DNA from: Chthoniobacterales bacterium
Lineage (GTDB): Bacteria > Verrucomicrobiota > Verrucomicrobiia > Chthoniobacterales > JACTMZ01
DNA length: 64,000 nt
Direction of reading: 5' to 3'
Assembly (NCBI GenBank): GCA_014879535.1
Contig: JACSRX010000037.1
Span: 32,629-96,628 of the forward strand
Numbering within the stretch: position 1 is the stretch's first letter; each line of letters starts with the position of its first letter. The position numbers were made by a program, and so were the translations under genes. The notes beneath the pieces were generated by a model. That model did not search any database, was not told the DNA's origin, and saw nothing but the letters and a program-made list of their open reading frames with translations. Below, piece by piece: positions 1-44,830 of this stretch.

Positions 1-185
1 AAGAGAAACACGGGTGAGAGCGCCGCCACGGGAACGAGCGAAACGATGAGCGGGGAAAGCGTCAGCGAGGTCATGACCCATGCAACCCCCACGGCCTGCA
101 TGAGGGTTCCGAGGTTCGAGACCAGTGACGCCAGCCAGAGGGAGCGGTAGACAGGCGACCGGAGCGGGGCCAGGAGATCGCGCAT
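1..185 (-). CDS. MFS transporter, N-terminal part (gene runs out of the window start)
   Basis: Own minus-strand translation from ATG at 185-183 gives MRDLLAPLRSPVYRSLWLASLVSNLGTLMQAVGVAWVMTSLTLSPLIVSLVP... This looks like the N-terminus and TM1-2 of ENTS/MFS_3-type transporters. It is truncated, so it is absent from the ORF track. Confidence 0.5.
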   Translation of the reverse strand, partial: MRDLLAPLRSPVYRSLWLASLVSNLGTLMQAVGVAWVMTSLTLSPLIVSLVPVAALSPVFL

Positions 186-296
186 CAGGTCCGGCCTTCG
201 TTCCGGGCACCGGCGGGGATGTTCAAATCATCAGCTTTGGCCACGCGGGAATTTTTGCTCGTTCCCTCCGCGGCGTGGAAGCGCTAAAAGAAGCGG

Positions 297-2539: not shown

Positions 2540-2540
2540 C

Positions 2541-5372: not shown

Positions 5373-6034
5373 GAAACAAGCCGGCCGTCCTCCATGGACA
5401 GCACGCGATCCGCCGCGGCGGCGGCTTGACCGCCGGTTTGAGTGCCCCAGACCACGGTCAGGCCGAGATCATCCACCGCACGGCGTCCCAGCGCGACGAG
5501 CGTCTCCGCTTCCGTTGGGGACTCGGCGATGATCACGCGCGGACGGTGGACGATCGCGCGGGCGAACGACACGAGGGACTGGCGCTCCGGGGTGAGGGTG
5601 CCGGTCACCGATTGGGCGTCGTCCTCCAAGCCGCAGAATTGCAGCGCGAAGAGCGTGTGCTCCGCCTGATCCGCCTCGCTGAGGCCGCCGGTTTTGAGCA
5701 CCGGGAAGGCGATGTTTTCCAGAACCGTGAGCGATGGCAGGAGGGCGCAGGCAGGAAACAGGAAGCCGAAATTTTCCTGACGGAGGCCGTCGCGGGCCGT
5801 GTCTTCAAGCGACGTGGCGACGATATCACCCACCAGAACTTCCCCGAGGTCGGGCTGTTCGAGCAGTCCGAGCAGGTGCAGGAGCAGGTTGTGACCGCAT
5901 CCGTCGGTGCCCGTGATGGCATGGAAACGGCCGGGGTCGAATTCCATGCTGATGCCACGCACCGCCGAGGCGCCTTGGCGCCAGAGCGGGCGCCGGCAAT
6001 GGAGGTTGCGGCAGCGAAGGGGGGGGGCGGTCAT
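5369..6034 (-). CDS. ABC-transporter ATPase-like protein with degenerate catalytic motifs
   Basis: Start placed at ATG 6034 (MTAPPLRCRNL...). ABC-ATPase-like layout, but Walker A reads GTDGCGHN, the signature region reads LTPERQS, and Walker B reads VIIAESPT. The stop overlaps the start of the squalene-synthase-like gene (TCAT on the plus strand). Confidence 0.6.
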   Translation of the reverse strand: MTAPPLRCRNLHCRRPLWRQGASAVRGISMEFDPGRFHAITGTDGCGHNLLLHLLGLLEQPDLGEVLVGDIVATSLEDTARDGLRQENFGFLFPACALLPSLTVLENIAFPVLKTGGLSEADQAEHTLFALQFCGLEDDAQSVTGTLTPERQSLVSFARAIVHRPRVIIAESPTEAETLVALGRRAVDDLGLTVVWGTQTGGQAAAAADRVLSMEDGRLVS

Positions 6035-6124
6035 TGCGCGTTTGCCTGATGGTGTCTGGCGCCACCCGAAATTGCAGGAAGAATCTGTTGCGCGCCGCGC
6101 AGGCCGACGGCACGCTGGCACAGC

Positions 6125-6694
6125 ATGACGCTGGCCAACCAAATCACCATGGTGCGGATTCTGCTCATCCCCGTTTTCGTGGTGTTTGCGGTGTATTACG
6201 CCACGAGTGTGGGCGAGGGCTCCCCGCAGGAATGGCTGCGCTGGAGTGCGGTGGCTGTGTTCGTGGTCGCCGCAGGCAGTGACGCCCTCGACGGTTGGAT
6301 CGCGCGGCGCTTCAACCAGCGCAGCGCCCTCGGCGTCGTCCTCGATCCCATTGCCGACAAGGGCCTCCTGCTTACCGCCATCATCACGCTCAGCGTTTAT
6401 CCGTGGAAAGTCAGCCTGCCACTCTGGTTCCCGGTCCTCGTGATCGCGCGTGATCTCGTCATTCTTCTCGGCTGCGCCCTGCTGAAGTTTTTCACCGGGG
6501 ATATCGAGGTTCGTCCAAGCATGCTCGGAAAGGTGGCCACCGCCCTGCAGATGGCGGCCGTGGCCTGGGTGCTGCTGCAGATCCCCGAGGAGCGCTGGGT
6601 GGTCTGGTGTGCCGGTCTCTTCACGCTGCTCAGCGGCATCGGCTATGTCTGGCGCGGGATGACCGCGCTCGGCGGGGCTCCCCGCGCCGCCTGA
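6125..6694 (+). CDS. pgsA: CDP-diacylglycerol--glycerol-3-phosphate 3-phosphatidyltransferase
   Basis: 189 aa. CDP-alcohol phosphatidyltransferase motif [27 protein letters not shown]. Multi-TM profile. Confidence 0.85.
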
Positions 6695-6699
6695 ACACC

Positions 6700-8112
6700 A
6701 TGAAAAGAGCCGTCCTTGTCGGCCGACCCAATGTCGGCAAATCCGCCCTCTTCAACCGGCTTGCCGGGCGGCGCATTTCCATCGTGCACGACCAGCCCGG
6801 CGTGACGCGCGACCGCATCGAGGCGGTGTGCCGCACCGGCGCGTCGCCGTTCGGCATCGTGGATACGGGGGGCATCGGCGCAGCGCCCGATCCGGATTTC
6901 GCCGAGGCGACGCACCGTGCGGCGGACGATGCCTTGGACGATGCCGATGCCGTGCTCTTCGTGGTGGACGGCAAGGACGGGCTCCTGCCGCTCGATCGGG
7001 AATTGGCGGCGAAGTTGCGCCGTGCCTCCCCGCCGGTGATTCTCGTGGTCAACAAGCTGGACACCCCGAAACACGACGACCGCGAGGCGGATTTCACGGC
7101 CCTCGGGTTTTCCAAGGTTGTAGGCGTCAGCGCCGCGCATGACCGCGGGATGGATGACCTGCTCTCTGCGGTGCAGGAGGCCTTTGGCGAAGAGACAGCC
7201 GTTGCGCCGGTGCCCGAGTTGACCATCCCGCCGCGCATCGTCATCATCGGCCGTCCGAACGTCGGGAAGTCCTCGTTGACCAATGCGCTCCTCGGGGATG
7301 AGCGGGCCATTGTCAGTGATATTGCCGGCACCACGCGGGATGCCTTGGAGGTGCCCTGCGAACTCGGCGGCCGTCCCTACCTCCTGCTCGACACGGCAGG
7401 CATCCGCCACCGCTCCAAACATAGCACCTCCGTGGAAGTGTTCAGCGTCATGCGCTCCGAAGAGGCCATCCGCATGGCCGACGTCTGCGTGCTGGTCGTC
7501 GATGCCGCGGCCGGCGTGACCGAGCAGGACAAGCGCATCGCCGGTCTCATCCAGAAGGCCCGCAAGGCCGTGGTCGTCGTGGTGAACAAGGCCGACCTGT
7601 TGCCGGAGGAAACGCACGGACGCGAGGGGCTCAAGGAGGCCTTGGAGTCATGGAGATCCCAGCTCTTCTTTCTGCCCCACGCCCCGTTGGTCCTGCTCTC
7701 GGCCAAGACGGGGGACAACCTCCGGCGCCTTGGCACCGTTCTCGAGAAGGTGCGCCAGCATGCCACGCGGCGTCTCGGCACGGGCGAACTCAACCGTGTG
7801 ATCCGCGATGCGATGACCCTGCATCCCCCGCCGGCGAAGGGAACGCGGCGCCTCAAGGTTTTCTACGCCACGCAACTCGAGGAGTCCAATCCCCGTCCAT
7901 TCGTGCCGGTGCGCTTCCTCCTTTTCGTCAATTCTCCCGGTCTCCTCACGCCGACCTACGAGACCTATCTCATCGCGCAGTTGCGCCGCGTGCGCGAGTA
8001 TCCGGGGATTCCCGTGCTCCTCGACCTGCGGGCGCGCCCGGAGTCCGAAAAGCGCGTCCGCGGGCGCCGGGGACGGGCACCTGAAACCCGCCCCGCGCGG
8101 CGCCGCAAATAG
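6700..8112 (+). CDS. der: ribosome-associated GTPase Der/EngA
   Basis: Start at ATG 6700 ([21 protein letters not shown]). Two tandem GTPase domains (second P-loop [14 protein letters not shown]) plus a KH-like C-terminus. Confidence 0.95.
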
Positions 8113-8240
8113 TCCGCCCCGGCGGACTTTGGCACGGACGCTGCTCTTTCTGTGGCGGGAGGGGGCAAATTTTCTTTGCGCCCCCCGTCGATTTCCCTAA
8201 ATTTTCCCGTTCGGCCAAACTTTATTCCACTGAAGCGCCC

Positions 8241-11200
8241 ATGAAGCAGCCCGCACGCCAAGGACTCTACGACCCGCAATTCGAGCACGAATCGTGCGGT
8301 GTCGGCTTTGTTGTCAACATGAAGGGCACGGCGTCCCACGAAATCGTGGGACAGGGGCTCCAGATTCTGGTCAATTTGGAACACCGTGGCGCCTGCGGGT
8401 TCGAGGAAAACACCGGTGACGGTGCGGGCATCCTCCTCCAGCTGCCCCACAAATTCCTCAGCGAGGTGGCCAAGGAGGAGCACATCACGCTGCCGCCCCC
8501 GGGCGAATACGGCGTGGCCATGGTTTTCCTGCCGCCGGACAAGCAGTTGCGCGACCAGATCGAGAAGCGCTTCGAGCGTGTCGTCCGTGCCGAGGGCCAG
8601 AAATTCCTCGGCTGGCGCTCCGTTCCCACCGACAACTCCACCCTCGGCGAGACCGCGAAGTCCGAGGAGCCCGAGGTGCGCATGGCATTCGTCGGACGCA
8701 ACCCGGCGATCAAGGATGAACTGGCGTTCGAACGGAAGCTCTTCGTCATCCGTCGCCGCCTCTTCAACGAAATCCGCTACAGCGGCACACCCGGCGGCAG
8801 TTTCTTCTACGTGCCGAGCTTCTCGTCGCGCACGATCGTTTACAAGGGGATGCTCACACCCCCCCAGGTCGCCGGGTATTATCCGGACTTGGCTGATCCG
8901 CGGATGGAAAGCGCGTTGGCCCTCGTCCACTCGCGTTTCAGCACGAACACCTTCCCGAGTTGGGACCGTGCGCATCCCTACCGTTATGTCGCGCACAACG
9001 GAGAGATCAACACGCTGCGCGGGAACGTCAACTGGATGCATGCCCGCGAGGCCCAGTTGGCTTCGCCCCTCTTCGGGGACGACATCGAGAAGATCAAACC
9101 CATCATCCACCAGGACGGCAGCGACTCGGCGATGTTCGACAACTGCTTCGAGTTTCTCGTCCTTTCCGGACGGCCGCTGGCGCATGCCGCGGTCATGATG
9201 ATTCCCGAGCCTTGGGCCAACCACAACGAGATGCCGGCGGATCTCCGGGATTTCTACGAATACCATGCCAGCCTCATGGAGCCGTGGGACGGCCCGGCGG
9301 CGGTCGCGTTCACCGACGGCACCCAGATCGGCGCGGTCCTCGACCGCAACGGCCTGCGTCCCTGCCGGTATTACGTCACCAAGGACGACCTTGTCATCAT
9401 GGCGTCCGAGGTCGGCGTTCTCGACATCGACCCCGAACGCGTCGAGTCGAAGGGCCGCCTCCAGCCCGGCCGCATCTTCCTGGTGGACACCAAGGAGGGG
9501 CGCATCATCGCCGACGAGGAAATCAAGGCGGAACTGGCCAAGGCCGAACCCTACGGCGGGTGGATCAAGGAGAACCTGGTCACGATCGAGGACCTTCCGG
9601 ACGGTGCCGAGCCCGCGCATCCGGACCACGACACGGTCACGACCAAGCAGTTCGCCTTCGGCTACACGCAGGAGGACCTCAACCTGATCATCGAGCCGAT
9701 GGCGCGCACCGCCGTCGAGCCGATCGGATCGATGGGCAACGACTCGCCCTTGGCCACGCTCTCGGACAAGCCGCAGTTGCTCTACAACTATTTCAAGCAG
9801 CTCTTCGCGCAGGTGACCAACCCGCCGATCGATTCGATCCGCGAGGAGATCGTCACCTCGACGATCACCACGCTCGGCTCCGAGGGCAACCTCCTCGATC
9901 CGACCCCCGAAAGCTGCCGCCAGATCCAGTTGGCATCGCCGGTGCTCAGCAACGAAGAGCTTGAAAAACTGCGCGCCCTCGACCGCCCCGGATTCAAATC
10001 CGCAACCCTGCCGATCCTCTACGACGTGGCCGGCGGAGGCGCCGCCTTGGCCAAGGCGTTGGAAGGTCTTTTCAAGGAGGCCGACCGCCAGATCGCCTCA
10101 GGCGTCAACATCCTCATTCTTTCCGACCGCGGGCTCGGCGAAGCGCAGGCGGCCATCCCAGCCTTGCTCGCGGTGTCCGGCCTGCACCATCACCTCATCG
10201 AGAACGGCACACGCACGAAGATCGGACTCGTCCTCGAGTCCGGCGAGCCCCGCGAGGTGCACCACTTCGCCCTGCTCACCGGTTACGGGGCCGGTGCGGT
10301 CAACCCTTATCTCGTGTTCGAGTCCATCGAGGACGTCATCAGCCGCGGCAAGCTCGCCGGAATCGACCCGAAGAAAGCGGTCAAGCAATACATCAAGGCC
10401 GCGGTCAAGGGCATCGTGAAGACGATGTCGAAAATGGGCATTTCGACGATCCAAAGCTACCGCGGTGCGCAGATCTTCGAGGCCGTCGGCCTCAACAGCG
10501 AAGTGGTGGACAAGTATTTCAAATGGACCGCCTCCCGCATCGAGGGACTCGACCTCGAAGGCATCGCCCGCGAGGTGGAGATGCGCCACCGGCGCGCGTG
10601 GCCCGGCCGCGACTACCGCGACGAGGTGCTCGATCCGGGCGGCGTTTACAAGTGGCGCCACGACGGCGAGCACCATGCCTTCAACCCGACCACGATCCAC
10701 CTGCTGCAGCACGCCTGCCGCACGGGCGACATGGACGTGTTCCGCAAATACTCCGCCTCGGTCAACGACCAGTCGCGCAAACTGTCGACCCTGCGCGGGC
10801 TCATCGACTTCGAGTTTCCCGAGGATGGGGGGATCCCCATCGAGCAGGTCGAATCCGTCGAGTCGATCATGAAGCGCTTCAAGACCGGCGCCATGTCCTA
10901 CGGGTCGATCAGCTCCGAGGCGCACGAGACCTTGGCCATCGCCATGAACCGCATCGGCGGCAAGAGCAACACGGGTGAGGGGGGCGAAGACCCCGGCCGC
11001 TACACCGTGATGCCCAACGGCGATTCGAAGAACAGCGCCATCAAGCAGGTTGCATCCGGCCGCTTCGGCGTCACCAGCTACTACCTCTCCCAGGCCAGGG
11101 AACTGCAGATCAAGATCGTGCAGGGGGCCAAGCCCGGCGAGGGAGGACAGCTTCCCGGCACCAAGGTCTATCCTTGGATCGCCAAGGTGCGGCATTCCAC

Positions 11201-14443: not shown

Positions 14444-14528
14444 GCCGGCGTGGCGAAATGGCAGACGCAACGGACTTAAAATCCGTTGGGAGGAAACTCC
14501 CGTGCGGGTTCAAGTCCCGCCGCCGGCA
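14444..14528 (+). tRNA. tRNA-Leu (anticodon TAA), class II with long variable arm
   Basis: Hand fold. Acceptor GCCGGCG/CGCCGGC. Anticodon stem ACGGA/TCCGT with loop CTTAAAA. Variable arm GGGAG-GAAA-CTCCC. T-arm GCGGG-TTCAAGT-CCCGC. Discriminator A. CCA is not encoded. Confidence 0.9.
14461..14528 (+). repeat. attL-side direct repeat (3' 68 nt of tRNA-Leu)
   Basis: Recurs at 44016-44083 with 2 mismatches (positions 14465 and 14474). 14475-14528 is identical to 44030-44083. Confidence 0.85.
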
Positions 14529-14595
14529 CTGTATTTATCAGGGTTTACGGGCGTTTTTGGTGGTCGAGTTAAAGGAAATTTTCGGGGGTATGTTT

Positions 14596-20273: not shown

Positions 20274-21164
20274 ATGCAAAAGGGCTTGTCGGCGTTGTCT
20301 CTGGCATTGTGGGCCTGTTTATCAGCTTTCCCGGCATTGTCGGCGGGAGCCGAGAAATGGGAGAAGCTTGAAAGCTGCCGCCTGAACGAAACCGCATATT
20401 TTGACGGCGATTCGTTCAGCGTGTTTCACGCAGGCGGCGAACTCATCGTGCGTCTGTATTTTGTGGACTCCCCGGAGACGGACGAAAGCTTTCCCGACCG
20501 TGTAAGGACGCAGGCCGGGCACTTTGGCAAGAGCGTCGAGGAAACTCTCCATGTCGGCAGCTACGCGAAGCAAGCCACAGCACAGCTCCTTTCCCGCCCC
20601 TTCACGGTCTTGACCAAATACCAAGATGCAAAAGGCCAAAGCGCCATGCCTCGACACTTCGCCTTTGTCACTACCGCAGACGGGAAGGACCTCGCTGAGA
20701 TCCTCGTGGCAAACGGGCTGGCGCGTTCGTATGGAGAGATTGCGGCGCCGCAGGGAAAGAACGCGGCCGCGCTGAAAGCCAAATATGATCGTTTGGATGA
20801 CAAGGCGAGGCGGTCAAAGTTTGGGCTTTATTCCCCACAGCCACTAACGGCGATTTCCCACGGGAAAGATCTTCAACTCGACAAACTGACCTTGGCGGAA
20901 GCGCAGGCGAAGGCGGCACCAATCCCGGCGCCTCAGGTTGCCAAGGCGCCTATGTCTGCGTCCGTCGGAATATCGCCGTCCACAGTTCCGGCTTCCGCGC
21001 CGAACCACGGCATGCCGTGGACAGCGGAGCAGGAGCAGACCTTGAGGGATTGCCTCGGCAAAGGCGTAACGGTTGAAGACATAGCCGCCGAGCTTGGTCG
21101 GACGCCCGTGGCCATCCTCGCCCGAATCCGCAAGTTGGGACTGCCGGAGCCGGGCCTTCCATGA
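20274..21164 (+). CDS. secreted staphylococcal-nuclease (SNase)-like protein with C-terminal GcrA-like HTH domain
   Basis: Signal peptide MQKGLSALSLALWACLSAFPALSAGA. SNase pattern DGDSFSV...VRLYFVDSPET. The C-terminus MPWTAEQEQTLRDCLGKGVTVEDIAAELGRTPVAILARIRKLGL aligns with my recollection of the GcrA N-terminal domain (MSWTDERV..LKKLW..GLSASQIA..LGGVTRNAVIGKVHRLGL). Confidence 0.65.
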   Translation: MQKGLSALSLALWACLSAFPALSAGAEKWEKLESCRLNETAYFDGDSFSVFHAGGELIVRLYFVDSPETDESFPDRVRTQAGHFGKSVEETLHVGSYAKQATAQLLSRPFTVLTKYQDAKGQSAMPRHFAFVTTADGKDLAEILVANGLARSYGEIAAPQGKNAAALKAKYDRLDDKARRSKFGLYSPQPLTAISHGKDLQLDKLTLAEAQAKAAPIPAPQVAKAPMSASVGISPSTVPASAPNHGMPWTAEQEQTLRDCLGKGVTVEDIAAELGRTPVAILARIRKLGLPEPGLP

Positions 21165-25990: not shown

Positions 25991-25998
25991 ACGCCTTG

Positions 25999-28900
25999 AT
26001 GAAGACCTACATGAGAAGCAGAGTGGCGGGATGGGGGCTGGCAATGCTGACCGTCTGTTGCCCGCGTGTGGTTGCGGAGATTCCCTATCCTGTATGGGAG
26101 AGCGTTCCTGTGGACCCCTCGGCAATGCCCGTGATTTTGGACATGAACGACCCCCTGCCTCCCGAAGAGGAGGTGCATTCGCTGATGTTGCAGAGTTGGA
26201 GTGAAGAGAGTTTTGATGAGGAGATCGTTGCGCTCGCCACCGCGCTGGGGGATGGCAGTGCGGCCAGTGGTGAAAACGCGGAGGCCAAAGCGGTCCGGGT
26301 GTTCAACTGGGTTCGCAACAACATTGACTACGATTACTATTACGGATTGCGCAAAGGGGCGGCCCTCACCCTCCTTGAGAGTTCCGGCAATGATTTCGAC
26401 CAATCGGCATTGCTGGCTGAGTTGCTGGTGGCGTCAGGTTATCCGGCATCGGACGTGAAGCTGCTGCTCACCTCGCAGCCGGTGGACTACGTCGATCTTG
26501 TGGAATGGATGGGACTTGCTGAGGAGCCCTATCCGGGCAAGACCTTCCTAGAGGCGAACGGGGTGTCAATAACCAGCGTCGGCTTCCCGGCTGGCACCAG
26601 CGACTTGGTTGCCAAGCAGGCGTTGTTCGGTTGGCAGTTTCTTAACAGTCGTGGACCCGGTAATGACGTATTCCCCAATGGCTCAGAACTTCCCAGCAAG
26701 GCGAACTTGGTCTTCCGACGGATGTTTGTGCGTCTCACCGTGGGAAGTGTGACTTACGATCTCGATCCATCTCGCAAGGTCTATGAGAAGATCACAGCCG
26801 CCAATGCCCTGCCAGCCGCCATCGGGTATGATCGCTCGTCGCTGCTCTCGGCCGCCGGGGGCACCGGTGATTCCAATTCCACGTCCGGGCTCAACCAGAC
26901 CAATATCGCCACGCACTTAACAGCGCGAACCACGCAGCTTCTGGACGAGTTGAGCGGCGCGTGGTCGGGTCTTTCCATGGAGGAGGTGATCAATGGTCGC
27001 CGGATCGTCCGGCAGGATGTTTCCAATCTCGCCGACGCCTCCACTGTGCCCGGCGACTATTACGGTGCAGCGACGCTCTTCGCTTCGGCATCGGACTCCG
27101 CGTTGGCAGGTTACAAGACGACTGTGAATTTCAAGTCCACGGAGGCGGCAGGCTTGGACTACACGATTGCGACCGCGGATTTGAAGGGCCGCAAAATCAC
27201 GCTGACCTTCAGCGGAAACAACGCCGAGTTGCGGCTGGACGATGACGAGGTGGCCGACACCGGGGCTCTGGGGTCCGCGACGGTTATGAACCTTTCGATC
27301 ACGGTGACGCATCCGGGGATGGGGGCGATCAGTAATCCGCCAGCCACCTACCGGAAGACGACCTCGGCGTCGGAGCTATGCTCCTATGCAATCATCTACG
27401 GATTCAACGCTTCGGAGCGGCTGCTGGCCAAACGGCAGGAGCGGCTCAAGGCCTACAAGGATGCCGGGCTGCCCGATGATTCCCGCGAAGTCCGCACGGA
27501 GCTTCTCAACATCATGGGGCTGACTTGGCTTCGCCAGACCGGGATATGCACCCGCGCGCTGTCGGCGCAGAACAACGTGCTGTCTCTCGCGCATCACCGG
27601 TTCGGACGGATGGCGCAGGAGGCGGGTTTCTATGTGGACGTCGGCATCCAGCTTTCCAGTAATTTCCCAGACGACGCCATTCCCGGCCCGAACCATCCCT
27701 CGGCATCCGCTCGCTTCGGTAATGTGTTTCATCTGGGCGCGATGTTCGCGAGTGCGATGGAGCACGGGATCATCGAGCAGATGCAGCCCGGCAGCTCAGC
27801 CGTCTCGACTGTGAACATCCTGAGGCTGGCCAACAGCACATCCGGCAATGCCCTGTATCTTGCCACTTCCTCGAATTGGAGCACCGTTTCACCAATCCTC
27901 GCGACGAACGGTTATACCACAGCGCAGATCAGCGACTTCAATGCCCGCATCAGCGGAGGTGCGCGGATTTTTCTGCCGAAAAACGCGGGCGTCTCCCAGG
28001 GCATCTGGGACGGTTCCGGCTGGGCGATTCGCTCTCCCACCAACGCGGGCATGATCATCAGCGGGGGCTACAGCGGAGGGTATTCGACGACCCCCAGCGT
28101 GGTCAGCTACTCCCCGATCAACACGAGTTATGCATTCAGTCCGGCCTCGATCTATTTCACACCGTCTATTCCTGTAAGCCTGCCTCCCCCGCCCGTATCG
28201 ACGCCAAAGTTCTACGGAAGCGATCCCGTGGACATGGCTACGGGCGCCTTCGTTTATGCCTCGGAGGACCTGGCGACGGGTCTGGAGGCAGCGCCGCGAG
28301 GGCTGGCGTTCTCGCGGTATTATTCCTCGGGCCAATCGGCCCGCGACGAGCAGAACATGGGCCATGGGTGGACGCACAACTTGCACATCCAAGCCGAACC
28401 TCGCACCGCGTCCGACGAGGCGTTGGGGATGGGTTCCCCACAGCAGGCCGCGGCGTTCCTTGTGGCGATGACCGCGGGTGCCGATCTTTACCGGGAGGGC
28501 GCCACCCCCAAGGAATGGGGCGTGGCGGCGCTGGTTGTGGGCTGGTTCGTGGACCAGATGCGCGACAATGCGGTCTCCGTGCGCATGGGCAAGGATGTGT
28601 TCCAGTTCGTAGCTCAGCCCGACGGGAGCTACACGCCACCGCCCGCTTCCACCATGACCTTGGGCAAAACGACGAACTCCACCTACTTCCTGCAGCAGCG
28701 TTTGGGCAATACAGTCCATTTCGATGCCCGGGGCAAGGCATCAAAAATTGTGGATGTTGACGGACGGGAAATGACCTTCATCTACAACTCCAGCACCAAC
28801 TTGGATTACGTGCAGGATCATGTGGGCCGCAGGTTCACCTTCGGCTACGATGGCAACAAGCGCATCACCTCAATTGCCGATTCGACCACCCCGTCGCGCA

Positions 28901-31900
28901 GCGTAAGCTTCGGCTACGACACCAACGGCAACCTCATCACCGCCAGCGACCCAGAGGGCAAGGTTTCGCACTTCGACTACGAGGTGGAAGGCGATCCCGG
29001 CAACACGGTGGCCTCCGAGCACCGCATTGTGCGGCTGCGCAACGACGACGACGAAACCATCACGCAGAACGTCTACGACGCTCTCGGGCGGGTCGAGCGC
29101 CAGTTCCTGCACGGGGACACGAATAAGACATTCCACCTCTTCTACACGGGCAGGGACAACTTCGAGGTGAACCCGGAAGGGGGTGCCACCCACTACTACT
29201 ACGACGAGCGCGGTCGGGCGTCCGGCAGCCGTGACGCCGAAGGCAATGTCACCTCGATGACTTATGATGGCCAAGACCGGATCGTGACTAGAACCTCGGG
29301 GGCCGGGGAAACCACTGTTTACACCCACGACGCCAACCACAACATCACCCGTATCGACCATCCGCGCGGCGGCGGTTCAACATTGTTGGATTACGACAGC
29401 CTCAATCGTCTGGACCTCGCCACCGATCCCAATGGCGTGCAGACCGATTACGTCTATTTTTCCAGCGGCGCCAACGCGGACAAGGACCGGCCGCAAAACG
29501 TGATCCATGCCAAGGGCACGGCGGATCAGTCCACGACCACGTTCTCCTATGTGGCCAGCGGCCCTGCGGTCGGGCGCGTGCAAACAATCAACGATGGCGA
29601 CGGGCTGCTCACGACCAAGACGTATGACTCCAATGGTCACCCGGATGTGACGACCGCCCCGGGCGGATTCGTCACCGATCAGAACTACGATGATAGGGGT
29701 GATCTCTTTTCTGTTACCGATCCGCGCAACAGCACGACAACGCGCACCTACAACAAGCGCCGTCAGGTCACCTCCACGGTTGCAGACTCGGGCGGCATCT
29801 CCGCATCGTCCGATGTGACCTACGACAATCAGGCCCGGGTGGAGACAGTGACGGCCCCGGCGCACAATGGCGGGCAGCGGTCGCAAACTGGCACAACGTA
29901 TTCGCCCACCGACAAGGTGCAGGTGGAGAAGCTCAATACGGTGACCATGGCGGAGACGATCTACGACAGCCGCGATTGGGCGGCGAGTGCCAAGGACGCC
30001 GCCAACCGCACGACCATCTTTGTGCGTGAGGCGAACGGCAATTTGCAGGAGGTCCAGAAGCCCGGCGCGCGCACGACGGCATTTACCTATGATGGCGACC
30101 GCCGTCTGCTGGGGACCTCCAATCCGGGGGCAAACTCCGGTGTGCGGGTTGAGGAGTTCGCCTATGACACCACCTCCGGCGGGCTGCCCCGCACGGTGAA
30201 GACCGAAGCGGACAACTTGACTGTGGTGCAGGAGTTTGACGCCAAGGGGCAGCTCCGCTTCCTCAAGGACCGCAAGGGAGCCACCTTCGAGTTTCGCTAC
30301 GGTGGCTTGGGGCGTCGCACGCATGTGATCCCTCCCGGCAGCGTGGGCACCGTGACCTCCTACACGAAGAACGGCCGCGTGGATGAGATCACCGAACCCA
30401 GCGGGGACACGGCCACGTTCAGCTACAACGCGACCACCGGACGGCTGCAGAGCGTGGCGTATTCCGGCGGAGCGACCGTCAATTACACCAGCTACGACAA
30501 CAACGGCAATCTCCTCGTTCTCAATGAAAACGGGAGCAACCAAATCACGCGGACCTACGACGGGCTCAACCGTGTGATGAGCTACACCGAGGGCGGACAG
30601 ACCATCGGGTATCGGTATTACCCGAACGGGAAGTTGGCCAAGCTCATCTATCCCGGCGGGACGGAAAACGGCGTGGGGCATGTGGAATACCTCTACAATG
30701 CTGAAGGGCGGCTCTGGCAGGTGATCGACAAACTCGACAGCACGGCAAGCCCGAGGGTCACCACCTATGGGTGGAATGACGACGGGAGCTTGGACTCGAT
30801 CACGCGGCCCAACAACACCGTGCGGTCGATCGGCTACGACAGCGTCGGGCGCCCCGAGACCATCGGAGAGAGTGCGGGTGCCGTATCCCTGCTTGCCTTG
30901 GGAATAACGTATTACCCGAGCGATGAAATCAAGACGCTGGACGTGACCCCAGCGCCGCCGATCCGCAAGACGAAGGCAATTCCCGAAGTGGCAATGACCT
31001 TTGGCGCGGCCAACCGTATTCTCACGTTCAACGGGCAATCGGTGAGCCACGATGACGATGGGAACCTGACCGGCGGCCCGCTTCCCGCAACCGGGGCGAT
31101 GACGAGCTACGGCTACGATACACGCAACCGCCTGACCGGCGCAGGCGGCCTCACTTACACCTACAACGCCGAGAACAACCGCGTGGGGATCGGCGGCACC
31201 GAAACCACGACGCTGGTGGTCGATTCGCAGAGCGCCTTGCCCAAGGTGCTCGTGCGGACCAAGAATGGAGTGACCACGCGGTATGTTTACGGTGTCGGGC
31301 TGCAATACGAAGTGAGCAGTGCGGGGGATGCCACCTACTACCACTACGACCAAAGCGGCAACACGGCGGTTCTCACGGACCAATCGGGCGCGGTGGTGGA
31401 CCGGATCACGTATTCGTCTTACGGCACCATCCGCTACCGGCTGGGCAGCTTCGACACGCCATTCCTCTACGGCGGGTTCTTCGGGGTGATGACCGACAGC
31501 AACGGCCTCATCGCCATGCGGGCGCGCTACTACAACCCGCTGACCAAGCGCTTCCTCACCAGCGACCCGGCCTTGGACGGCCTCAACTGGTATGCCTACG
31601 CCGAGGGTAACCCCATCAACTTCGCTGACCCAACGGGGCTGGGGGCGGCCAGTGTCACGGCGGCGTTGAATAGCAGCCTCAATTATCTGGGGATGGTAGG
31701 CGGCGGGGTTGCTTCAGGTCTCAGTCAGGGCTTGGACAACTTCAACAACACGGTGACCTTTGGTTTGTATGACCATCTGGGCTGGTCAAACTCGGGAGCG
31801 AATACCGGGTGGGAACACGATCTGAGCCGTTCGCTTGCGACAATCCCGAGGGATGTTGCTCTCGGAGCCGGGGTTGCCGCTGCCTATCAAAGCATCACCA

Positions 31901-32208
31901 CAACAGCGGCAAGCGTAGTAAATTCTTTGACCACAAGGACGACACTTCAAACTACAATACACGGCGCGGAACGCATTGCAGGAGCAGCTGCAACACGCGG
32001 AGGAGTTCTTAGCGAAGCTGGGGTCGCAGCCGTGCGGCAAGGGGGTCAGGTTATGACGCAGGCCGATGGCGCGACAGTAAGAGTTCTACAGAATCAAACA
32101 GGACGTTTCAACGTTGTAGTTGAAGGTGAACGCGGCATCATAACAACTTTCGAAAATCTTTCTCAAAAATCACTTGATCGTCTCAGTAAAAGTTATGGAT
32201 GGAAATAA
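25999..32208 (+). CDS. Rhs/YD-repeat polymorphic toxin with N-terminal transglutaminase-like region and variable C-terminal toxin domain
   Basis: About 2069 aa. N-terminal signal. Transglutaminase-like segment (VRVFNWVRNNIDYDYYYG...SGNDFDQSALLAELLVASGYPA). Many YD repeats. Conserved Rhs core end: RARYYNPLTKRFLTSDPALDGLNWYAYAEGNPINFADPTGLG. A 187-aa tail follows (31645-32205). Confidence 0.9.
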   Translation: MKTYMRSRVAGWGLAMLTVCCPRVVAEIPYPVWESVPVDPSAMPVILDMNDPLPPEEEVHSLMLQSWSEESFDEEIVALATALGDGSAASGENAEAKAVRVFNWVRNNIDYDYYYGLRKGAALTLLESSGNDFDQSALLAELLVASGYPASDVKLLLTSQPVDYVDLVEWMGLAEEPYPGKTFLEANGVSITSVGFPAGTSDLVAKQALFGWQFLNSRGPGNDVFPNGSELPSKANLVFRRMFVRLTVGSVTYDLDPSRKVYEKITAANALPAAIGYDRSSLLSAAGGTGDSNSTSGLNQTNIATHLTARTTQLLDELSGAWSGLSMEEVINGRRIVRQDVSNLADASTVPGDYYGAATLFASASDSALAGYKTTVNFKSTEAAGLDYTIATADLKGRKITLTFSGNNAELRLDDDEVADTGALGSATVMNLSITVTHPGMGAISNPPATYRKTTSASELCSYAIIYGFNASERLLAKRQERLKAYKDAGLPDDSREVRTELLNIMGLTWLRQTGICTRALSAQNNVLSLAHHRFGRMAQEAGFYVDVGIQLSSNFPDDAIPGPNHPSASARFGNVFHLGAMFASAMEHGIIEQMQPGSSAVSTVNILRLANSTSGNALYLATSSNWSTVSPILATNGYTTAQISDFNARISGGARIFLPKNAGVSQGIWDGSGWAIRSPTNAGMIISGGYSGGYSTTPSVVSYSPINTSYAFSPASIYFTPSIPVSLPPPPVSTPKFYGSDPVDMATGAFVYASEDLATGLEAAPRGLAFSRYYSSGQSARDEQNMGHGWTHNLHIQAEPRTASDEALGMGSPQQAAAFLVAMTAGADLYREGATPKEWGVAALVVGWFVDQMRDNAVSVRMGKDVFQFVAQPDGSYTPPPASTMTLGKTTNSTYFLQQRLGNTVHFDARGKASKIVDVDGREMTFIYNSSTNLDYVQDHVGRRFTFGYDGNKRITSIADSTTPSRSVSFGYDTNGNLITASDPEGKVSHFDYEVEGDPGNTVASEHRIVRLRNDDDETITQNVYDALGRVERQFLHGDTNKTFHLFYTGRDNFEVNPEGGATHYYYDERGRASGSRDAEGNVTSMTYDGQDRIVTRTSGAGETTVYTHDANHNITRIDHPRGGGSTLLDYDSLNRLDLATDPNGVQTDYVYFSSGANADKDRPQNVIHAKGTADQSTTTFSYVASGPAVGRVQTINDGDGLLTTKTYDSNGHPDVTTAPGGFVTDQNYDDRGDLFSVTDPRNSTTTRTYNKRRQVTSTVADSGGISASSDVTYDNQARVETVTAPAHNGGQRSQTGTTYSPTDKVQVEKLNTVTMAETIYDSRDWAASAKDAANRTTIFVREANGNLQEVQKPGARTTAFTYDGDRRLLGTSNPGANSGVRVEEFAYDTTSGGLPRTVKTEADNLTVVQEFDAKGQLRFLKDRKGATFEFRYGGLGRRTHVIPPGSVGTVTSYTKNGRVDEITEPSGDTATFSYNATTGRLQSVAYSGGATVNYTSYDNNGNLLVLNENGSNQITRTYDGLNRVMSYTEGGQTIGYRYYPNGKLAKLIYPGGTENGVGHVEYLYNAEGRLWQVIDKLDSTASPRVTTYGWNDDGSLDSITRPNNTVRSIGYDSVGRPETIGESAGAVSLLALGITYYPSDEIKTLDVTPAPPIRKTKAIPEVAMTFGAANRILTFNGQSVSHDDDGNLTGGPLPATGAMTSYGYDTRNRLTGAGGLTYTYNAENNRVGIGGTETTTLVVDSQSALPKVLVRTKNGVTTRYVYGVGLQYEVSSAGDATYYHYDQSGNTAVLTDQSGAVVDRITYSSYGTIRYRLGSFDTPFLYGGFFGVMTDSNGLIAMRARYYNPLTKRFLTSDPALDGLNWYAYAEGNPINFADPTGLGAASVTAALNSSLNYLGMVGGGVASGLSQGLDNFNNTVTFGLYDHLGWSNSGANTGWEHDLSRSLATIPRDVALGAGVAAAYQSITTTAASVVNSLTTRTTLQTTIHGAERIAGAAATRGGVLSEAGVAAVRQGGQVMTQADGATVRVLQNQTGRFNVVVEGERGIITTFENLSQKSLDRLSKSYGWK

Positions 32209-32389
32209 GCCTCAACAATACGTCTGTTGCTTTTGCGGGGAAAGCATTCCATCTCAGGAATTGCTTTCATTAACTCTCGGTGCGCCGCTTGAAAATTCCG
32301 AAACACAGAATTTATACGCCCATCGCCTATGTCTAAAAACACGGATTCTAAATTCAATTCCCCTTCATCCTGATTTTAACGCCGATTAG
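32195..32389 (+). CDS. candidate Rhs immunity protein (64 aa, Cys/His-containing)
   Basis: ATG at 32195 overlaps the Rhs stop by 14 nt. Sequence: MDGNKPQQYVCCFCGESIPSQELLSLTLGAPLENSETQNLYAHRLCLK... Position and size are typical for cognate immunity genes. Confidence 0.55.
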   Translation: MDGNKPQQYVCCFCGESIPSQELLSLTLGAPLENSETQNLYAHRLCLKTRILNSIPLHPDFNAD

Positions 32390-32495: not shown

Positions 32496-32877
32496 ATGAA
32501 AAGTGCTTTGAAGATTTTGCTGGCAGGCATCATTGGCGTCGTGGTCATGGGGGCCTCTTTGCTTGCTAACCCTATGAAAATGGATCCATCAGAGATTGAG
32601 CAGATGTTGCTTCGCGAAAAGCCGCTCGGAACCCAAAAGGCTGAGATTGAACGCTGGTTGATCCACGAGAAGAAGCTGGCTCCTGTCTCATCGAACGTCG
32701 GTTTCCTACGTCAGGCCCCCGCCAAGCCGCGTGGTCGGTGTGAAGTCGATAAAAGCGAAGCTCGGAGATTACTGGAGTTTTCCATTCCTGAGCACGTCTG
32801 TCGTGGCCTATTGGGGATTCAATGAAAGGGATGAGTTAATTGGAATTTGGGTTTGGAAAACCACGGACGCGCCATAG
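32496..32877 (+). pseudogene. small secreted/anchored protein interrupted by a +1 frameshift at a C5 run
   Basis: The N-terminal frame (MKSALKILLAGIIGVVVMGASLLA...GFLRQAP) degenerates after 32716-32720 (CCCCC). The next frame continues as the plausible sequence VVGVKSIKAKLGDYWSFPFLSTSVVAYWGFNERDELIGIWVWKTTDAP*, ending at 32877. Confidence 0.5.
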
Positions 32878-36770: not shown

Positions 36771-37352
36771 TCATAGCTCTCGACTTGTGGCTTTTTGGCC
36801 TAGTATTTTTCTGGCCATACGATCCTTGAGCCTTTGGATTTTGTCCTCTTCGGCTATGACCTCACTGGGCTTGAAGCAGAGGGGGATTTCGACCGTGGTG
36901 TTGCAGAGGTTAATCTTGTAGCCGCCTGCCTCGGGAGCTGTGACGGTGAGGTTTTCGATCCGTTCAATGCCGCTTTCTGCGAAGCTGACGAATCCCGGGT
37001 AGGTGCCTGTGGCAACTTTGAGGTTTTCGCACCCTCGGAAGCTGGCAGCTTCTCCATCGCAGTCGGTTTTAGTGACGGTGAGATTTTCGATCCGTTCGAT
37101 GCCGCTTTCTACGAAGCAGACCCACCCATGGAAGGTGCCGGTGGCAACTTTGAGGTTTTTGCACCCCCAAAAGCCGGCAGCGCTGTCATACTCATTTCTT
37201 CCTGTGAAGTGGAGTAGTGGGTTGAGGTGGGTGATTTTTGAGCCCGCCATGCCGCAGTAGGTAGTAATCTCCACGGGCTCTGTGAGCTTGGAAGCCCAAG
37301 AAGGGTCTTCCTCAATTAGAGCTTTGAACTCTTCTGCGGTAAGCTTTTTCAT
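36771..37352 (-). CDS. BspA-type LRR-like repeat protein
   Basis: 193 aa holding two 44-aa repeats: F(W/R)GC(K/E)NLKVATGT..G.V.F.ESGIERIENLTVT. The FxGCxxL motif is typical of BspA-like LRRs. Confidence 0.5.
   Translation of the reverse strand: MKKLTAEEFKALIEEDPSWASKLTEPVEITTYCGMAGSKITHLNPLLHFTGRNEYDSAAGFWGCKNLKVATGTFHGWVCFVESGIERIENLTVTKTDCDGEAASFRGCENLKVATGTYPGFVSFAESGIERIENLTVTAPEAGGYKINLCNTTVEIPLCFKPSEVIAEEDKIQRLKDRMARKILGQKATSREL
36940..37203. repeat. 2 x 132-bp tandem duplication inside the LRR-like gene
   Basis: GTGACGGTGAG(G/A)TTTTCGATCCGTTC(A/G)ATGCCGCTTTCT(G/A)CGAAGC... starts at both 36940 and 37072. The period of 132 bp equals 44 codons. Confidence 0.75.
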
Positions 37353-42762: not shown

Positions 42763-43938
42763 TCAGTCGCGAGAGTCGGGTGCAAGCGCCCAAAAGGCTG
42801 CGGCGTCGCGATCGCTGACCGCATCCGCGTAGCTCGCGGCGACCACGGCGGGGGAATTACCCATCTCGAACGCGGTGCGGGCCGTGTCTTTCAATTTTTG
42901 GTGCAAGTAGGTGCCGTAGGAGTGACGCAAGGCGTTCTGTGGTATCTTCGCTCCAGCCAAGTTTTCCAACTTGGCGAGCTCTTCGAGCCATGCCCATACG
43001 CGAGCCTTGAACGCGGGTCGCGCGGCGAAGATCGGGCCGGTTTTCGGCCGCTTGCTTGGCAACCAACGGAGCAAGGCCGGCTCGACGGAAACCGACCTCG
43101 GGCGGCCGGTCTTGGTGCGTTGCACGCGGAGGGTGTCGGCCTTGAGGTCTTCCCACTTCGCCAGGGCCATTTCATCGTTTCTGAGGCCAGCGAAAAGTTT
43201 AAGGGCGAGGGCGGGGAGAAGATCGGGGCGCTGTTTCTTGGCTGCGAGCAGCAGCGCACGGCACTGGGGAACGGTGAGGATTTCGGGGCGGCCGCGGACA
43301 ACGCGTGGGCGCGTGATTGCCTCGGCGGGGTTGCGGGTGAGCCAGCCTTGCTTTTTGGAAAACTCGGCCAAGACGGAAAAATACCGCAACCGCTTGACAC
43401 GTTGCGATTGGCTTGGCGCCTTGCCCTTCGCGTCTTTGCCGTCCACGGTGATCCGCAGTTCTTCGGCGGTGAGGGCGGACAAGCTTTTCTTTTCATGCCC
43501 GCGTAGCAGGCGGGCGAGCTTGGCTTTGAGCTCGAGACAATGGCGGCGCGAGAGGCCGGCGTCGAGGCGATCCGCGTAGAGTGCGGCGATTGCTTCGGCA
43601 ACCGTTTTGGATTCGCCTGCCGCGTGTTGGCTCTCCCAAAAAAATGCCGCCTCAACCAACGAAGCGCGGCCGCTGAGTTTCGCCAAGGCGGCCTTGGCGT
43701 CGGCAATTTGGAGGGGGGAGAGTTCGGCGGCGACGGCCTCCGCTTGTAAAGGGTGCAGCTCTGCCCACCGTTCATCAATCCAAGCGCGGGCGGCGTCGAG
43801 TGAAGCGAAGCCGCGCCGTTCCGGGGCCATGCCGGGGCCGAGGAACTTGGCGGAGAGCCAGACGCGATAGACAGTGCGGGATGGCGTCGGGTGCTCGATG
43901 AAGATACGCGAGCCGAGGGGGAGCTTGCGCTTTGCCAT
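42763..43938 (-). CDS. int: tyrosine recombinase / phage-type integrase
   Basis: 391 aa. The C-terminal catalytic region shows GLRNDEMALAKWEDL (Arg), ALRHSYGTYLH (His-x-x-Arg-region context) and AASYAD (Tyr). Lies next to the right att repeat. Confidence 0.85.
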   Translation of the reverse strand: MAKRKLPLGSRIFIEHPTPSRTVYRVWLSAKFLGPGMAPERRGFASLDAARAWIDERWAELHPLQAEAVAAELSPLQIADAKAALAKLSGRASLVEAAFFWESQHAAGESKTVAEAIAALYADRLDAGLSRRHCLELKAKLARLLRGHEKKSLSALTAEELRITVDGKDAKGKAPSQSQRVKRLRYFSVLAEFSKKQGWLTRNPAEAITRPRVVRGRPEILTVPQCRALLLAAKKQRPDLLPALALKLFAGLRNDEMALAKWEDLKADTLRVQRTKTGRPRSVSVEPALLRWLPSKRPKTGPIFAARPAFKARVWAWLEELAKLENLAGAKIPQNALRHSYGTYLHQKLKDTARTAFEMGNSPAVVAASYADAVSDRDAAAFWALAPDSRD

Positions 43939-43981
43939 GGGCGGAAGAAAACTTCCCCCAAATGGAAAAGAAAAGGTTTTT

Positions 43982-43998
43982 CTCCACTTTTTTCCACT
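43982..43998 (+). promoter_or_regulatory. putative integrase arm-type site, right arm
   Basis: CTCCACTTTTTTCCACT is 16/17 identical to 14596-14612. It lies between the int start (43938) and the att repeat (44016). Confidence 0.4.
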
Positions 43999-44015
43999 TT
44001 CTTTTCTTTACCTAC

Positions 44016-44083
44016 GCAGGCGCAACGGCCTTAAAATCCGTTGGGAGGAAACTCCCGTGCGGGTTCAAGTCCCGCCGCCGGCA
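44016..44083 (+). repeat. attR-side direct repeat (partial tRNA-Leu 3' copy)
   Basis: 68 nt matching 14461-14528 with 2 mismatches. It lacks the acceptor 5' strand and D-arm. One mismatch would disrupt the anticodon stem. Confidence 0.85.
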
Positions 44084-44098
44084 GCCGGCAATTGCACG

Positions 44099-44830
44099 AT
44101 GTCCAACACTCCCATGAACCGACGCACATATCTTCTCCGCAGGAGCAGACACCTGCTGCCAATCTGCGGTGTCCTGCTCCTGTGCATATGCCCCGCGAGC
44201 CTGTTGGCGGGTAGCAGATGGAAGGAACTGACCGACTGCCGGTTGATTCCACAGGATTACAACGACGGCGACTCCTTTCATGTGGATTGCCAAGGCAAGG
44301 AATACATCTTCCGCCTGTATTTCGTGGATGCACCCGAGAGTGATGACTCCATTCCAAGCCGGGTCGCTGAGCAGGCGGCTCACTTCAAGAAGTCCGCTTC
44401 AAGAATGCTGGAGGTGGGGCAACATGCAAAAAAAGTCACGGCGCAGTTGCTTTCCCGTCCATTCACGGTCTTGACGACATTCGAGGACGCCAAGGGGCGC
44501 AGTCAGCTCCCGCGTGAGTTTGCTTTCGTGACCACCGGGGACGGCAAGGATTTGGGCGAGGTTTTGGTGAGCCAGGGTCTGGCCCGCTCCTTTGGTGCCC
44601 CGGCGAGCCCCCCCGGAAAGACGGAGGAGGAACTCCGCTCGAAATACGACCACCTCGAACGGACCGCGCGGCGCGAAAGACTGGGCGCATGGGGCAACGG
44701 GGACGAGTTTCGTGGGGATCAGCCGGCCGAGGCCAAAGCGGCGGAGGACAAACCGGGCGAGACTCATGAGGATTTCACGGACAAAACCATGGACAAGCTC
44801 CAGTCCATGACACAGGAGTTTGTTGAGTAG
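44099..44830 (+). CDS. SNase-like (thermonuclease family) exported protein, chromosomal paralog of 20274-21164
   Basis: Start at ATG 44099. Signal/anchor LLPICGVLLLCICPASLLAG. SNase pattern DGDSFHV...FRLYFVDAPES. By hand alignment about 79/126 core positions are identical to the island copy. No GcrA-like tail. Confidence 0.65.
   Translation: MSNTPMNRRTYLLRRSRHLLPICGVLLLCICPASLLAGSRWKELTDCRLIPQDYNDGDSFHVDCQGKEYIFRLYFVDAPESDDSIPSRVAEQAAHFKKSASRMLEVGQHAKKVTAQLLSRPFTVLTTFEDAKGRSQLPREFAFVTTGDGKDLGEVLVSQGLARSFGAPASPPGKTEEELRSKYDHLERTARRERLGAWGNGDEFRGDQPAEAKAAEDKPGETHEDFTDKTMDKLQSMTQEFVE

Follow-up and report, generated by a model that had tools for sequence, protein, structure and literature searches.

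An Rhs gene of a Chthoniobacterales bacterium ends in an uncatalogued candidate toxin domain that is paired with a small putative zinc-finger immunity protein

Introduction

What does the end of an Rhs gene encode when the sequence beyond its conserved core resembles no catalogued toxin, and does the small gene behind it protect the producer? This question is raised by a 2070-amino-acid (aa) Rhs protein encoded in 64,000 nucleotides (nt) from a Chthoniobacterales bacterium (GenBank assembly GCA_014879535.1, contig JACSRX010000037.1, positions 32,629 to 96,628), a stretch hereafter called the window, whose numbering is used throughout. Our analysis shows that the last 88 residues of the Rhs protein and the 64-aa product of the overlapping downstream gene belong to two conserved families. 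That an Rhs toxin is followed by its immunity gene is already known as a type of system; the toxin family, the putative zinc-finger immunity family and the conserved overlap of the start codon are new. The features on which the argument depends are as follows.

25996-32208, + strand: Rhs polymorphic toxin gene, 2070 aa (open reading frame (ORF) and translation, Pfam)
31609-31644, + strand: core-end motif PxxxxDPxGL, NPINFADPTGLG, read from the sequence
31627-31644, + strand: DPTGLG, end of the Rhs core and expected self-cleavage boundary, read from the sequence
31645-31941, + strand: conserved pre-toxin module, 99 aa, found before unrelated C-termini elsewhere
31942-32205, + strand: putative toxin domain, 88 aa, Rhs residues 1983-2070, of an uncatalogued family (homologues, conservation, AlphaFold models)
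31960-31974, + strand: H-G-A-E-R, His1989 to Arg1993, candidate catalytic residues, with an invariant His and Arg on the predicted first helix
32143-32148, + strand: Thr2050-Thr2051 on predicted strand 4 (G-I-I-T-T-F; strand at residues 67-75, T70 at least 90% conserved)
32194-32208, + strand: gene overlap junction, with the ATG of the immunity candidate (32195-32197) inside the Tyr-Gly codons of the toxin (TATGG)
32195-32389, + strand: 64-aa immunity candidate, ATG at 32195, stop at 32387-32389, no signal peptide

A conserved pair of adjacent genes

When 5.8 billion proteins were searched with the 187-aa tail of the Rhs protein, 112 homologues came back, most of which share only its last ~88 residues, always at their own C-terminus (local BLAST). 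A profile search of 1.84 billion representatives extended the toxin family to 497 cluster representatives (50% identity) at E ≤ 1e-3 and 299 at E ≤ 1e-10; given the 497 representatives, the family is far beyond chance. Among the 150 matches listed, in proteins of 80 to 2138 aa, the domain lies at the C-terminus or a few residues off it, and its carriers include Rhs proteins with DUF6531, proteins of the TcB/TcC type with SpvB, FG-GAP and TcdB_midN, PAAR-like DUF4280 proteins and DUF6443 proteins. An earlier note on this DNA, made from the sequence alone, had pointed out that the segment after DPxGL is the exchangeable part of such proteins, which the homologues bear out at the level of sequence, and no library searched (Pfam, NCBIfam, PHROGs, PADLOC, PDB) names the family.

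The family signature reads T.HGAER.AG..ATRGGVL...QADGA...GRF.VVV.G.RG.ITTF.NLSQKS..RL..NYGW. Across 84 sequences less than 80% identical to one another, H9, G10, R13 and G67 are invariant, and T7, A15, G16, A19, R21, G22, G23, L25, G45, A46, V48, G56, T70, Y87 and W89 are at least 90% conserved. The copy in the window looks intact because it has every one of these residues, and a catalytic role for His1989 and Arg1993 can be proposed from their conservation.

The small gene accompanies this domain wherever the domain served as the starting point. A scan of one genome per species gave six toxin-seeded loci, from a Polyangiaceae metagenome-assembled genome (MAG), a Verrucomicrobia MAG, Brevundimonas bullata, an Actinomycetota MAG, a Bdellovibrionales MAG and Arsenicibacter rosenii, and all six have a 63-74-aa homologue of the small ORF directly after the toxin. 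Local searches by hidden Markov models (HMMs) place the partner next to the toxin in every one of the nine toxin-seeded loci (L001-L006, L013, L014 and the window), while the immunity-seeded loci L007 and L008/L009 have the toxin upstream. The toxin loci come from Myxococcota, Verrucomicrobiota, Alphaproteobacteria, Actinomycetota, Bdellovibrionales and Bacteroidota, and by sequence similarity the pair is spread over at least six bacterial phyla. The immunity gene also occurs as an orphan without toxin (L010-L012, a genome seen in 54 blocks of the collection). Because the partner follows the toxin in all nine loci and in addition occurs alone, an immunity function, as judged from synteny and the orphan copies, is well supported for the 64-aa protein. 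The earlier note had named the next small gene as the cognate partner, and we regard the toxin-immunity pairing itself as very probable.

Two of these loci deserve a description of their own. One orphan gene (P0232, L010 4001-4198) lies among housekeeping genes, with ORFs of 104 aa and 158 aa just upstream that have no known family. In L013 (JGI Ga0370479_0000013, 1-10549), a stand-alone 182-aa version of the toxin and its immunity gene stand in an array beside a phage-type integrase; the array consists of small gene pairs that include a TNT-domain toxin and DUF2283, DUF7945, DUF6896 and DUF7660 proteins, and by its gene content it looks like a depot of orphan toxin-immunity cassettes.

The junction between the two genes is itself conserved. 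As the earlier note had stated, the 64-aa ORF overlaps the end of the Rhs gene by 14 nt (32195-32208), and it has conserved homologues. The immunity ATG falls within the Tyr-Gly codons of the toxin at 9 of 11 junctions, as TATGG or, in L014, as CATGG (His-Gly); besides the window, the embedded start is found in L001, L002, L003, L005, L006, L007, L008 and L014. A promoter-like site ahead of the small gene was sought on the + strand and not found, nor does a terminator-like site follow the gene. Since the start codon is embedded in the toxin gene and no promoter-like site precedes it on that strand, the overlapping genes are likely to be translationally coupled.

The partner as a putative zinc-finger protein

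A profile built from seven proteins, namely that of the window and those of the six species-scan loci, retrieved 203 homologues of the small protein at E ≤ 0.01. The 120 listed homologues are 59-94 aa long and without Pfam domain, and all those with a source name are called 'hypothetical'; an exact look-up showed that the window protein itself is not on record. By this measure of its relatives, the small ORF is a real gene, far beyond chance.

The earlier note had suggested that the motifs CCFC (C11, C14) and HRLC (H43, C46) may bind zinc, the four codons being 32225-32227, 32234-32236, 32321-32323 and 32330-32332. Conservation among 121 sequences strengthens this suggestion: C11, F13, C14, E36 and Q38 never vary, H43 is kept in 120, and position 46 is always His (88) or Cys (33); H58 and P59 are retained in 116 and 119 sequences, respectively. 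The pattern CxxC-x28-Hxx(H/C) probably forms a standard four-ligand zinc site. Zinc-finger models and the eL43/RpoP ribbons gave weak, sub-threshold matches only to the family, and no immunity family of Pfam or NCBIfam (Imm*, SUKH, SuFu, Barstar and others) matched the window protein or the 121 members to threshold. The small protein is acidic (7 D/E against 4 K/R), whereas the toxin domain is basic (10 K/R against 7 D/E). Because it has no signal peptide and carries Cys/His ligands, the small protein, and hence the target of the toxin, would be cytoplasmic.

In P0088, a protein of 163 aa, a toxin domain that stops short of strand 4 runs straight into immunity sequence (...RFNIVVEGERGISAPANVICCFCGSQ...). 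Either a natural deletion has inactivated the toxin here, or the fusion is an artefact of assembly or gene calling.

The Rhs core, the pre-toxin module and the origin of the cassette

The protein that carries the toxin domain is recognizable as an Rhs polymorphic toxin. Pfam assigned RHS_repeat (E=4.4e-36, 14 stretches) and DUF6531 (E=1.5e-10) to its ORF, together with a transglutaminase-like domain at residues 89-151 (Transglut_core E=4.9e-6) and a weak match to the RHS core end (0.011). Its N-terminus, MMKTYMRSRVAGWGLAMLTVCCPRVVA|E, reads as a Sec-type signal-peptide-like segment, and the protein may well carry a signal peptide; a type VI secretion system (T6SS) family was found in 0 of 19 neighbouring ORFs scanned against Pfam. 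The core ends in ...WYAYAEGNPINFADPTGLG. The 187-aa tail that follows DPTGLG (31645-32205) ends in ...GERGIITTFENLSQKSLDRLSKSYGWK, or, at greater length, ...GIITTFENLSQKSLDRLSKSYGWK; it is unrelated to the RHS repeats, and relatives have other domains in its place. The coordinates that the earlier note had given are all correct, as ORF and translation confirm. Rhs and TcC proteins self-cleave at their C-terminal boundary and thereby release the tail, and by analogy the tail studied here would be released by cleavage at the DPTGLG boundary.

The first ~100 residues of the tail had been described in that note as rich in Gly, Ser, Thr and Ala and linker-like. The compositional part of this description holds, with 49% of these residues in the first 99 tail aa against 37% in the Rhs core, but a plain linker is not what the homologues indicate. 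Five proteins (P0081, P0085, P0061, P0092 and P0104) share tail residues ~15-101 and then continue into unrelated C-termini (local BLAST), so this half of the tail is a conserved module rather than a mere linker, with the core GLSQGLDNFNNTVTFGLYD..GWSNS.ANTGWEHDLSRS..TIPRDV preserved in proteins with different C-termini. On this sequence evidence, the module is reused with different toxins. No Pfam family matched any of eight related proteins scanned, these five among them. The possibility of a transmembrane entry segment was also considered and is unsupported by hydropathy, as the module has no strongly hydrophobic segment (maximum Kyte-Doolittle 19-residue mean 1.09).

Base composition changes along the gene in the manner expected of a toxin-immunity cassette that recombined onto a resident Rhs core. 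The GC content at third codon positions (GC3) drops from 0.78 for the Rhs core to 0.62 for the pre-toxin module and 0.32 for the toxin, with 0.34 for the immunity gene, and the fall from 0.8-1.0 to about 0.3 takes place between about 31650 and 31920.

Fold and possible activity of the toxin

The earlier note had proposed that the toxin resembles DUF4258/BrnT/RelE-like RNases and that the pair may be new. Its novelty was examined in sequence libraries, structures and the literature. Pfam left the toxin domain unmatched in the window protein and in 46 family members; a PEP-utilizers mobile domain (E=0.08, 2 of 46 members) was dismissed as chance. Scans of the small ORF, of the whole tail and of its pre-toxin and toxin modules against Pfam, NCBIfam, PHROGs and PADLOC gave no family, the sole library match being a chance-level one to PtuB (E=0.015 over 16 residues). 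Sequence and profile searches of the PDB with the toxin and the small protein returned only chance matches (CSL3 lectin, cadherin-23) and generic zinc ribbons (eL43, HP0958, RpoP), and tblastn of plasmids with the toxin domain returned nothing. ATRGGVL and HGAERIAG are absent from the searchable literature, and CCFCG appears only in unrelated papers. A well-described toxin family was thus sought for the C-terminal domain in Pfam, NCBIfam, the PDB and, by Foldseek, among structures, and none matched; the toxin and the small protein are both uncatalogued, and the pair is new in this respect.

Two AlphaFold models were built, one from 46 sequences (predicted local distance difference test score (pLDDT) 77.4, predicted template modelling score (pTM) 0.64) and one from 84 sequences (pLDDT 81.8, pTM 0.73). 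Both predict the same order: the H-G-A-E-R helix, a low-confidence Gly-rich loop, a helix, a four-strand meander with the conserved Thr-Thr on its last strand, and a C-terminal helix ending in Y-G-W. In the second model, the elements are H8-13, H27-36, E38-41, E47-52, E58-64, E67-75 and H77-87. BECR RNases combine an N-terminal helical segment with a four-strand meander that has a conserved Ser/Thr on strand 4 (PMC3482391), and the colicin-like group has the order pre-alpha, alpha and beta1-4, with the catalytic His on the pre-alpha helix and a basic residue nearby (bioRxiv 10.64898/2026.08.28.747851). The predicted order of elements in the toxin matches this published colicin-like order, with the pre-alpha segment modelled at pLDDT <50, and the expected residues are in place, H9 and R13 being invariant and T70 at least 90% conserved. 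The conserved C-terminal Tyr (Y87) is RelE-like, but its conservation is confounded by the overlapping start codon.

DUF4258 (≈Ntox49) has been placed among the colicin-like BECR RNases (bioRxiv 10.64898/2026.08.28.747851) and, elsewhere, counted as part of the RelE/ParE superfamily, with its activity still listed as unknown (Gerdes 2025, PMC11980606). A comparison set was obtained by retrieving, with a DUF4258 consensus, an annotated 'DUF4258 domain-containing protein' on the Athalassotoga plasmid pATS2; it was widened with six PF14076-annotated relatives and with L019 and L021, the two most divergent of the relatives from a metagenome scan, and the final alignment held six sequences, verified or related. 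Viral contigs, phages and plasmids gave no further DUF4258 relatives. The toxin family and the DUF4258 proteins have the motif T-x-H-[AG]-x-E-R-[IML] in common, and hhalign aligns the H-G-A-E-R of the toxin with T-D-H-A-L-E-R of DUF4258. The alignment to the six proteins covers 56-57 columns in register, from T-x-H to I-I-T-x-[FY], with P=0.0027-0.0054. Of 200 column shuffles none reached its score, of 200 block shuffles three did, and the reversed alignment and the immunity family stayed at background.

The proposed RNase kinship is weakly supported: element order, motif and hhalign speak for it, while the Pfam models and Foldseek against the PDB speak against it. Membership of the toxin in DUF4258, RelE or BrnT is not established, because the HMM and structure tests found no such match and the profile-profile result is no more than suggestive. 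For a BECR-type RNase distantly related to DUF4258, the sequence and model evidence leaves us evenly balanced.

Foldseek returned two further sets of matches. MINPP1 histidine phosphatases recurred in the lists at E≈1-2.5; they were considered because MINPP1 carries an RHGxRxP motif, and they are not significant. Against viral predicted structures, the toxin model (31927-32205) matched uncharacterised Lactobacillus-phage proteins and a 'Thoeris anti-defense 2-like' (Tad2-like) protein with probability ~1.0, E 7e-3 to 5e-2 and TM ~0.4 over ~54 columns, which is a weak lead.

Proposed mechanism and competing explanations

The reading that we favour, with a modest lean, is that of an Rhs polymorphic toxin-immunity module with a BECR-class RNase and a zinc-finger immunity protein. 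The Rhs shell would encapsulate the C-terminal tail and cleave itself after DPTGLG. The toxin would most likely act in the cytoplasm of the target cell, as suggested by a partner that lacks a signal peptide and has Cys/His metal ligands. It would most probably be a small, metal-independent BECR RNase, a distant relative of the colicin-like DUF4258/Ntox49, whose putative active site combines two invariant residues of the N-terminal helix, His1989 and Arg1993, with Thr2050 of strand 4. The 64-aa C2-H-(H/C) zinc finger would bind the toxin, block this site and protect the producer, and a single low-GC cassette that joined the Rhs core by recombination would have brought in both genes. What the data show is that both families are conserved, syntenic and modular and that composition breaks along the gene; toxicity, neutralisation, zinc binding, RNase activity and the delivery route we infer.

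Several results weigh against this account. Pfam models of DUF4258, BrnT, ParE/RelE, HigB, Ntox and PBECR reached E ≤ 1 in 0 of 46 toxin members, and Foldseek of both models against the PDB gave best values of E=0.21-0.26 with no BECR, RelE or colicin chain in the best 50. The hhalign probability of the toxin against the six DUF4258 sequences is 7-11%, and a shallow 7-sequence DUF4258 alignment gave 0.6%, over strands 3-4 only. The His/Arg segment on which the active site is drawn is of low confidence in both models, with pLDDT <50 at residues 12-20, and the overlapping start codon, rather than function, may account for part of the constraint on the invariant C-terminal Y-G-W. That the small protein binds zinc and the toxin is itself a prediction, and no relation of that protein to MqsA or to any Pfam immunity family could be detected.

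These points would be accommodated by a genuine toxin-immunity pair whose toxin is no RNase, such as a new-fold enzyme or binder acting on DNA, on a nucleotide or cofactor like NAD+, or on protein, with the Gly-rich loop (AG..ATRGG) as a phosphate- or nucleotide-binding element; we regard this as possible and on the unlikely side. That neither model found a resembling solved structure, that known toxin families are unmatched, that the most conserved segment is Gly-rich and poorly modelled and that the DUF4258 probability is so low all fit it, as do the best viral Foldseek matches (Lactobacillus-phage and Tad2-like proteins, E=7e-3 to 5e-2), Tad2 being a protein that binds a nucleotide signal. 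It is countered by the BECR-like element order, N-terminal His/Arg and strand-4 Thr, by a whole-domain in-register alignment to DUF4258 that beats 200 of 200 column shuffles, and by the size of the domain, as ADP-ribosyltransferases, NADases and deaminases are usually larger than 88 aa. Bolder, and rather unlikely, is a new toxin fold or activity in which the His/Arg segment and the Gly-rich loop would become ordered only on binding a substrate or partner, combined with a new metal-dependent C2-H-H/C immunity class whose start codon is hard-wired, across phyla, in the Tyr-Gly codons of the toxin.

The other two explanations question the roles of the parts. The small ORF could encode a zinc-finger accessory, for example a chaperone or adaptor by which the toxin is folded, loaded or activated, or else a regulator, with self-protection achieved otherwise or unneeded. 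The immunity role is deduced solely from where the gene lies, the Pfam immunity families matched here include no zinc-finger proteins, and tight translational coupling would also suit a chaperone. However, orphan copies without a toxin gene (in the genome seen in 54 blocks) are what one expects of immunity genes rather than of dedicated chaperones, the partner follows the toxin on any carrier, be it Rhs, DUF6443 or the short stand-alone cassettes of L013, and an acidic partner faces a basic toxin; we consider the accessory role improbable. The C-terminal domain, which matches no known toxin family, could also be non-toxic and serve, say, in binding or adhesion, in which case the locus would be no conflict system. 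This is very improbable in our view, as in Rhs proteins the domain follows DPxGL and on TcB/TcC-like and PAAR-like carriers it forms the C-terminus, and as it is exchangeable, has a cassette-like low GC, is accompanied by an obligate small partner gene with orphan copies, and in L013 has further toxin cassettes for neighbours, a TNT toxin among them.

Many new enzymatic activities have come from polymorphic toxins, which are a main supply of them and also of tools, base editors and specific tRNases being examples. The toxin domain described here is absent from Pfam, NCBIfam and the PDB, and comprises about 500 50%-identity clusters in at least six phyla on at least four kinds of carrier; it is accompanied by a very small putative zinc-finger immunity family, in which Pfam immunity families match 0 of 121 members. 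If the link to DUF4258 were true, the family would connect the RNases of intracellular toxin-antitoxin systems with secreted Rhs toxins and would provide a tractable relative for DUF4258. At 88 + 64 aa, the pair is short enough for easy synthesis and assay, and it should be useful to polymorphic-toxin specialists rather than astonishing.

Genomic setting of the locus

The wider surroundings of the Rhs gene resemble an integrated element. A 68-nt direct repeat (14461-14528 and 44016-44083, 97% identical, 29,555 bp apart) copies the 3' part of a tRNA-Leu(TAA) gene (14444-14529), and the right copy is adjoined by the following feature.

42763-43938, - strand: tyrosine-integrase-like ORF

GC is 0.46-0.61 inside the segment against 0.63-0.65 in the flanks. 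Because of the tRNA-Leu(TAA) repeat pair, the integrase-like ORF and this GC contrast, the Rhs locus probably lies within a tRNA-integrated genomic island of ~29.6 kb.

Other features were observed in the same region. Two staphylococcal-nuclease (SNase) homologues (20274-21164 and 43874-44830, both on the + strand) are 52% identical over 200 aa; the former lies inside the putative island, and the SNase part of the latter starts just outside the right repeat, which its 5' part, probably non-coding, overlaps. Behind the immunity candidate, at 32496-32877 (+ strand), the ORFs 32496-32825 and 32731-32877 overlap in different frames and read like one frameshifted gene for a small secreted or lipoprotein-like protein (N-terminus MKSALKILLAGIIGVVVMGASLLA), which could be a pseudogene or reflect a sequencing error; neither Pfam nor NCBIfam matched them. 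Finally, a 110-nt direct repeat occurs twice at 36940-37181, its copies being 85% identical and 132 nt apart, in or near the ORF 36771-37352 (- strand), which has no Pfam match.

Comparison with known systems

The locus has most in common with the Rhs/YD-repeat polymorphic toxins (Zhang et al. 2012, PMC3482391). It shares with them DUF6531 and the RHS repeats, a core that closes with PxxxxDPxGL, a toxin that varies at the C-terminus and is directly followed by the immunity gene, reuse of the toxin domain on TcB/TcC-like, PAAR-like DUF4280 and DUF6443 scaffolds, orphan immunity genes and a low-GC cassette. It differs in that the toxin and immunity protein stand outside all Pfam Ntox, Tox and Imm families, and in its predicted Sec-type signal peptide and N-terminal transglutaminase-like domain, with no T6SS family in the 19 neighbouring ORFs scanned.

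With DUF4258 (PF14076)/Ntox49, the toxin shares a length of ~80-90 aa, an N-terminal T-x-H-[AG]-x-E-R-[IML], and a predicted second helix followed by a four-strand meander that ends in [IV]-[IV]-T-x-[FYW]; the order of a toxin gene first and an overlapping partner downstream is also that of the DUF4258-DUF2283 pair on pATS2. In contrast, the toxin described here has an extra Gly-rich loop and a conserved C-terminal helix ending in YGW, its partner is a putative zinc-finger protein and not of the DUF2283, HicB or MqsA type, and it would be a secreted polymorphic toxin rather than an intracellular toxin-antitoxin toxin.

The tRNases colicin D and colicin E5 and the BECR tRNases of CdiA-CT type likewise consist of an exchangeable C-terminal domain of ~90-110 aa with a small immunity gene just downstream. 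In Tox-ColicinD, the N-terminal helix bears the catalytic His within Hxx[ED], and strand 4 bears a Ser/Thr (PMC3482391), to which H-G-A-E and T2050 would correspond here. However, the toxin has no sequence or Foldseek match to 1V74, 2DFX or any CdiA-CT structure, and its immunity protein is unrelated to ImmD and ImmE5.

For the immunity candidate, the closest parallel is the N-terminal zinc domain of MqsA, the antitoxin of MqsR, a domain which also has ~65 aa, a CxxC, a spacer of ~28-30 residues and a second metal-ligand pair. This domain of MqsA binds a BECR-fold toxin. In the small protein, Hxx(H/C) makes up the second pair, and a helix-turn-helix domain is lacking. Direct homology to the MqsA N-domain was considered and rejected, since hhalign gave 0.7% with only the CxxC knuckle aligned and the PDB profile search returned no MqsA chain at E ≤ 10. 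DUF4258-MqsA fusions have been reported (PMC11980606), and by analogy the small immunity protein may work in a way similar to MqsA.

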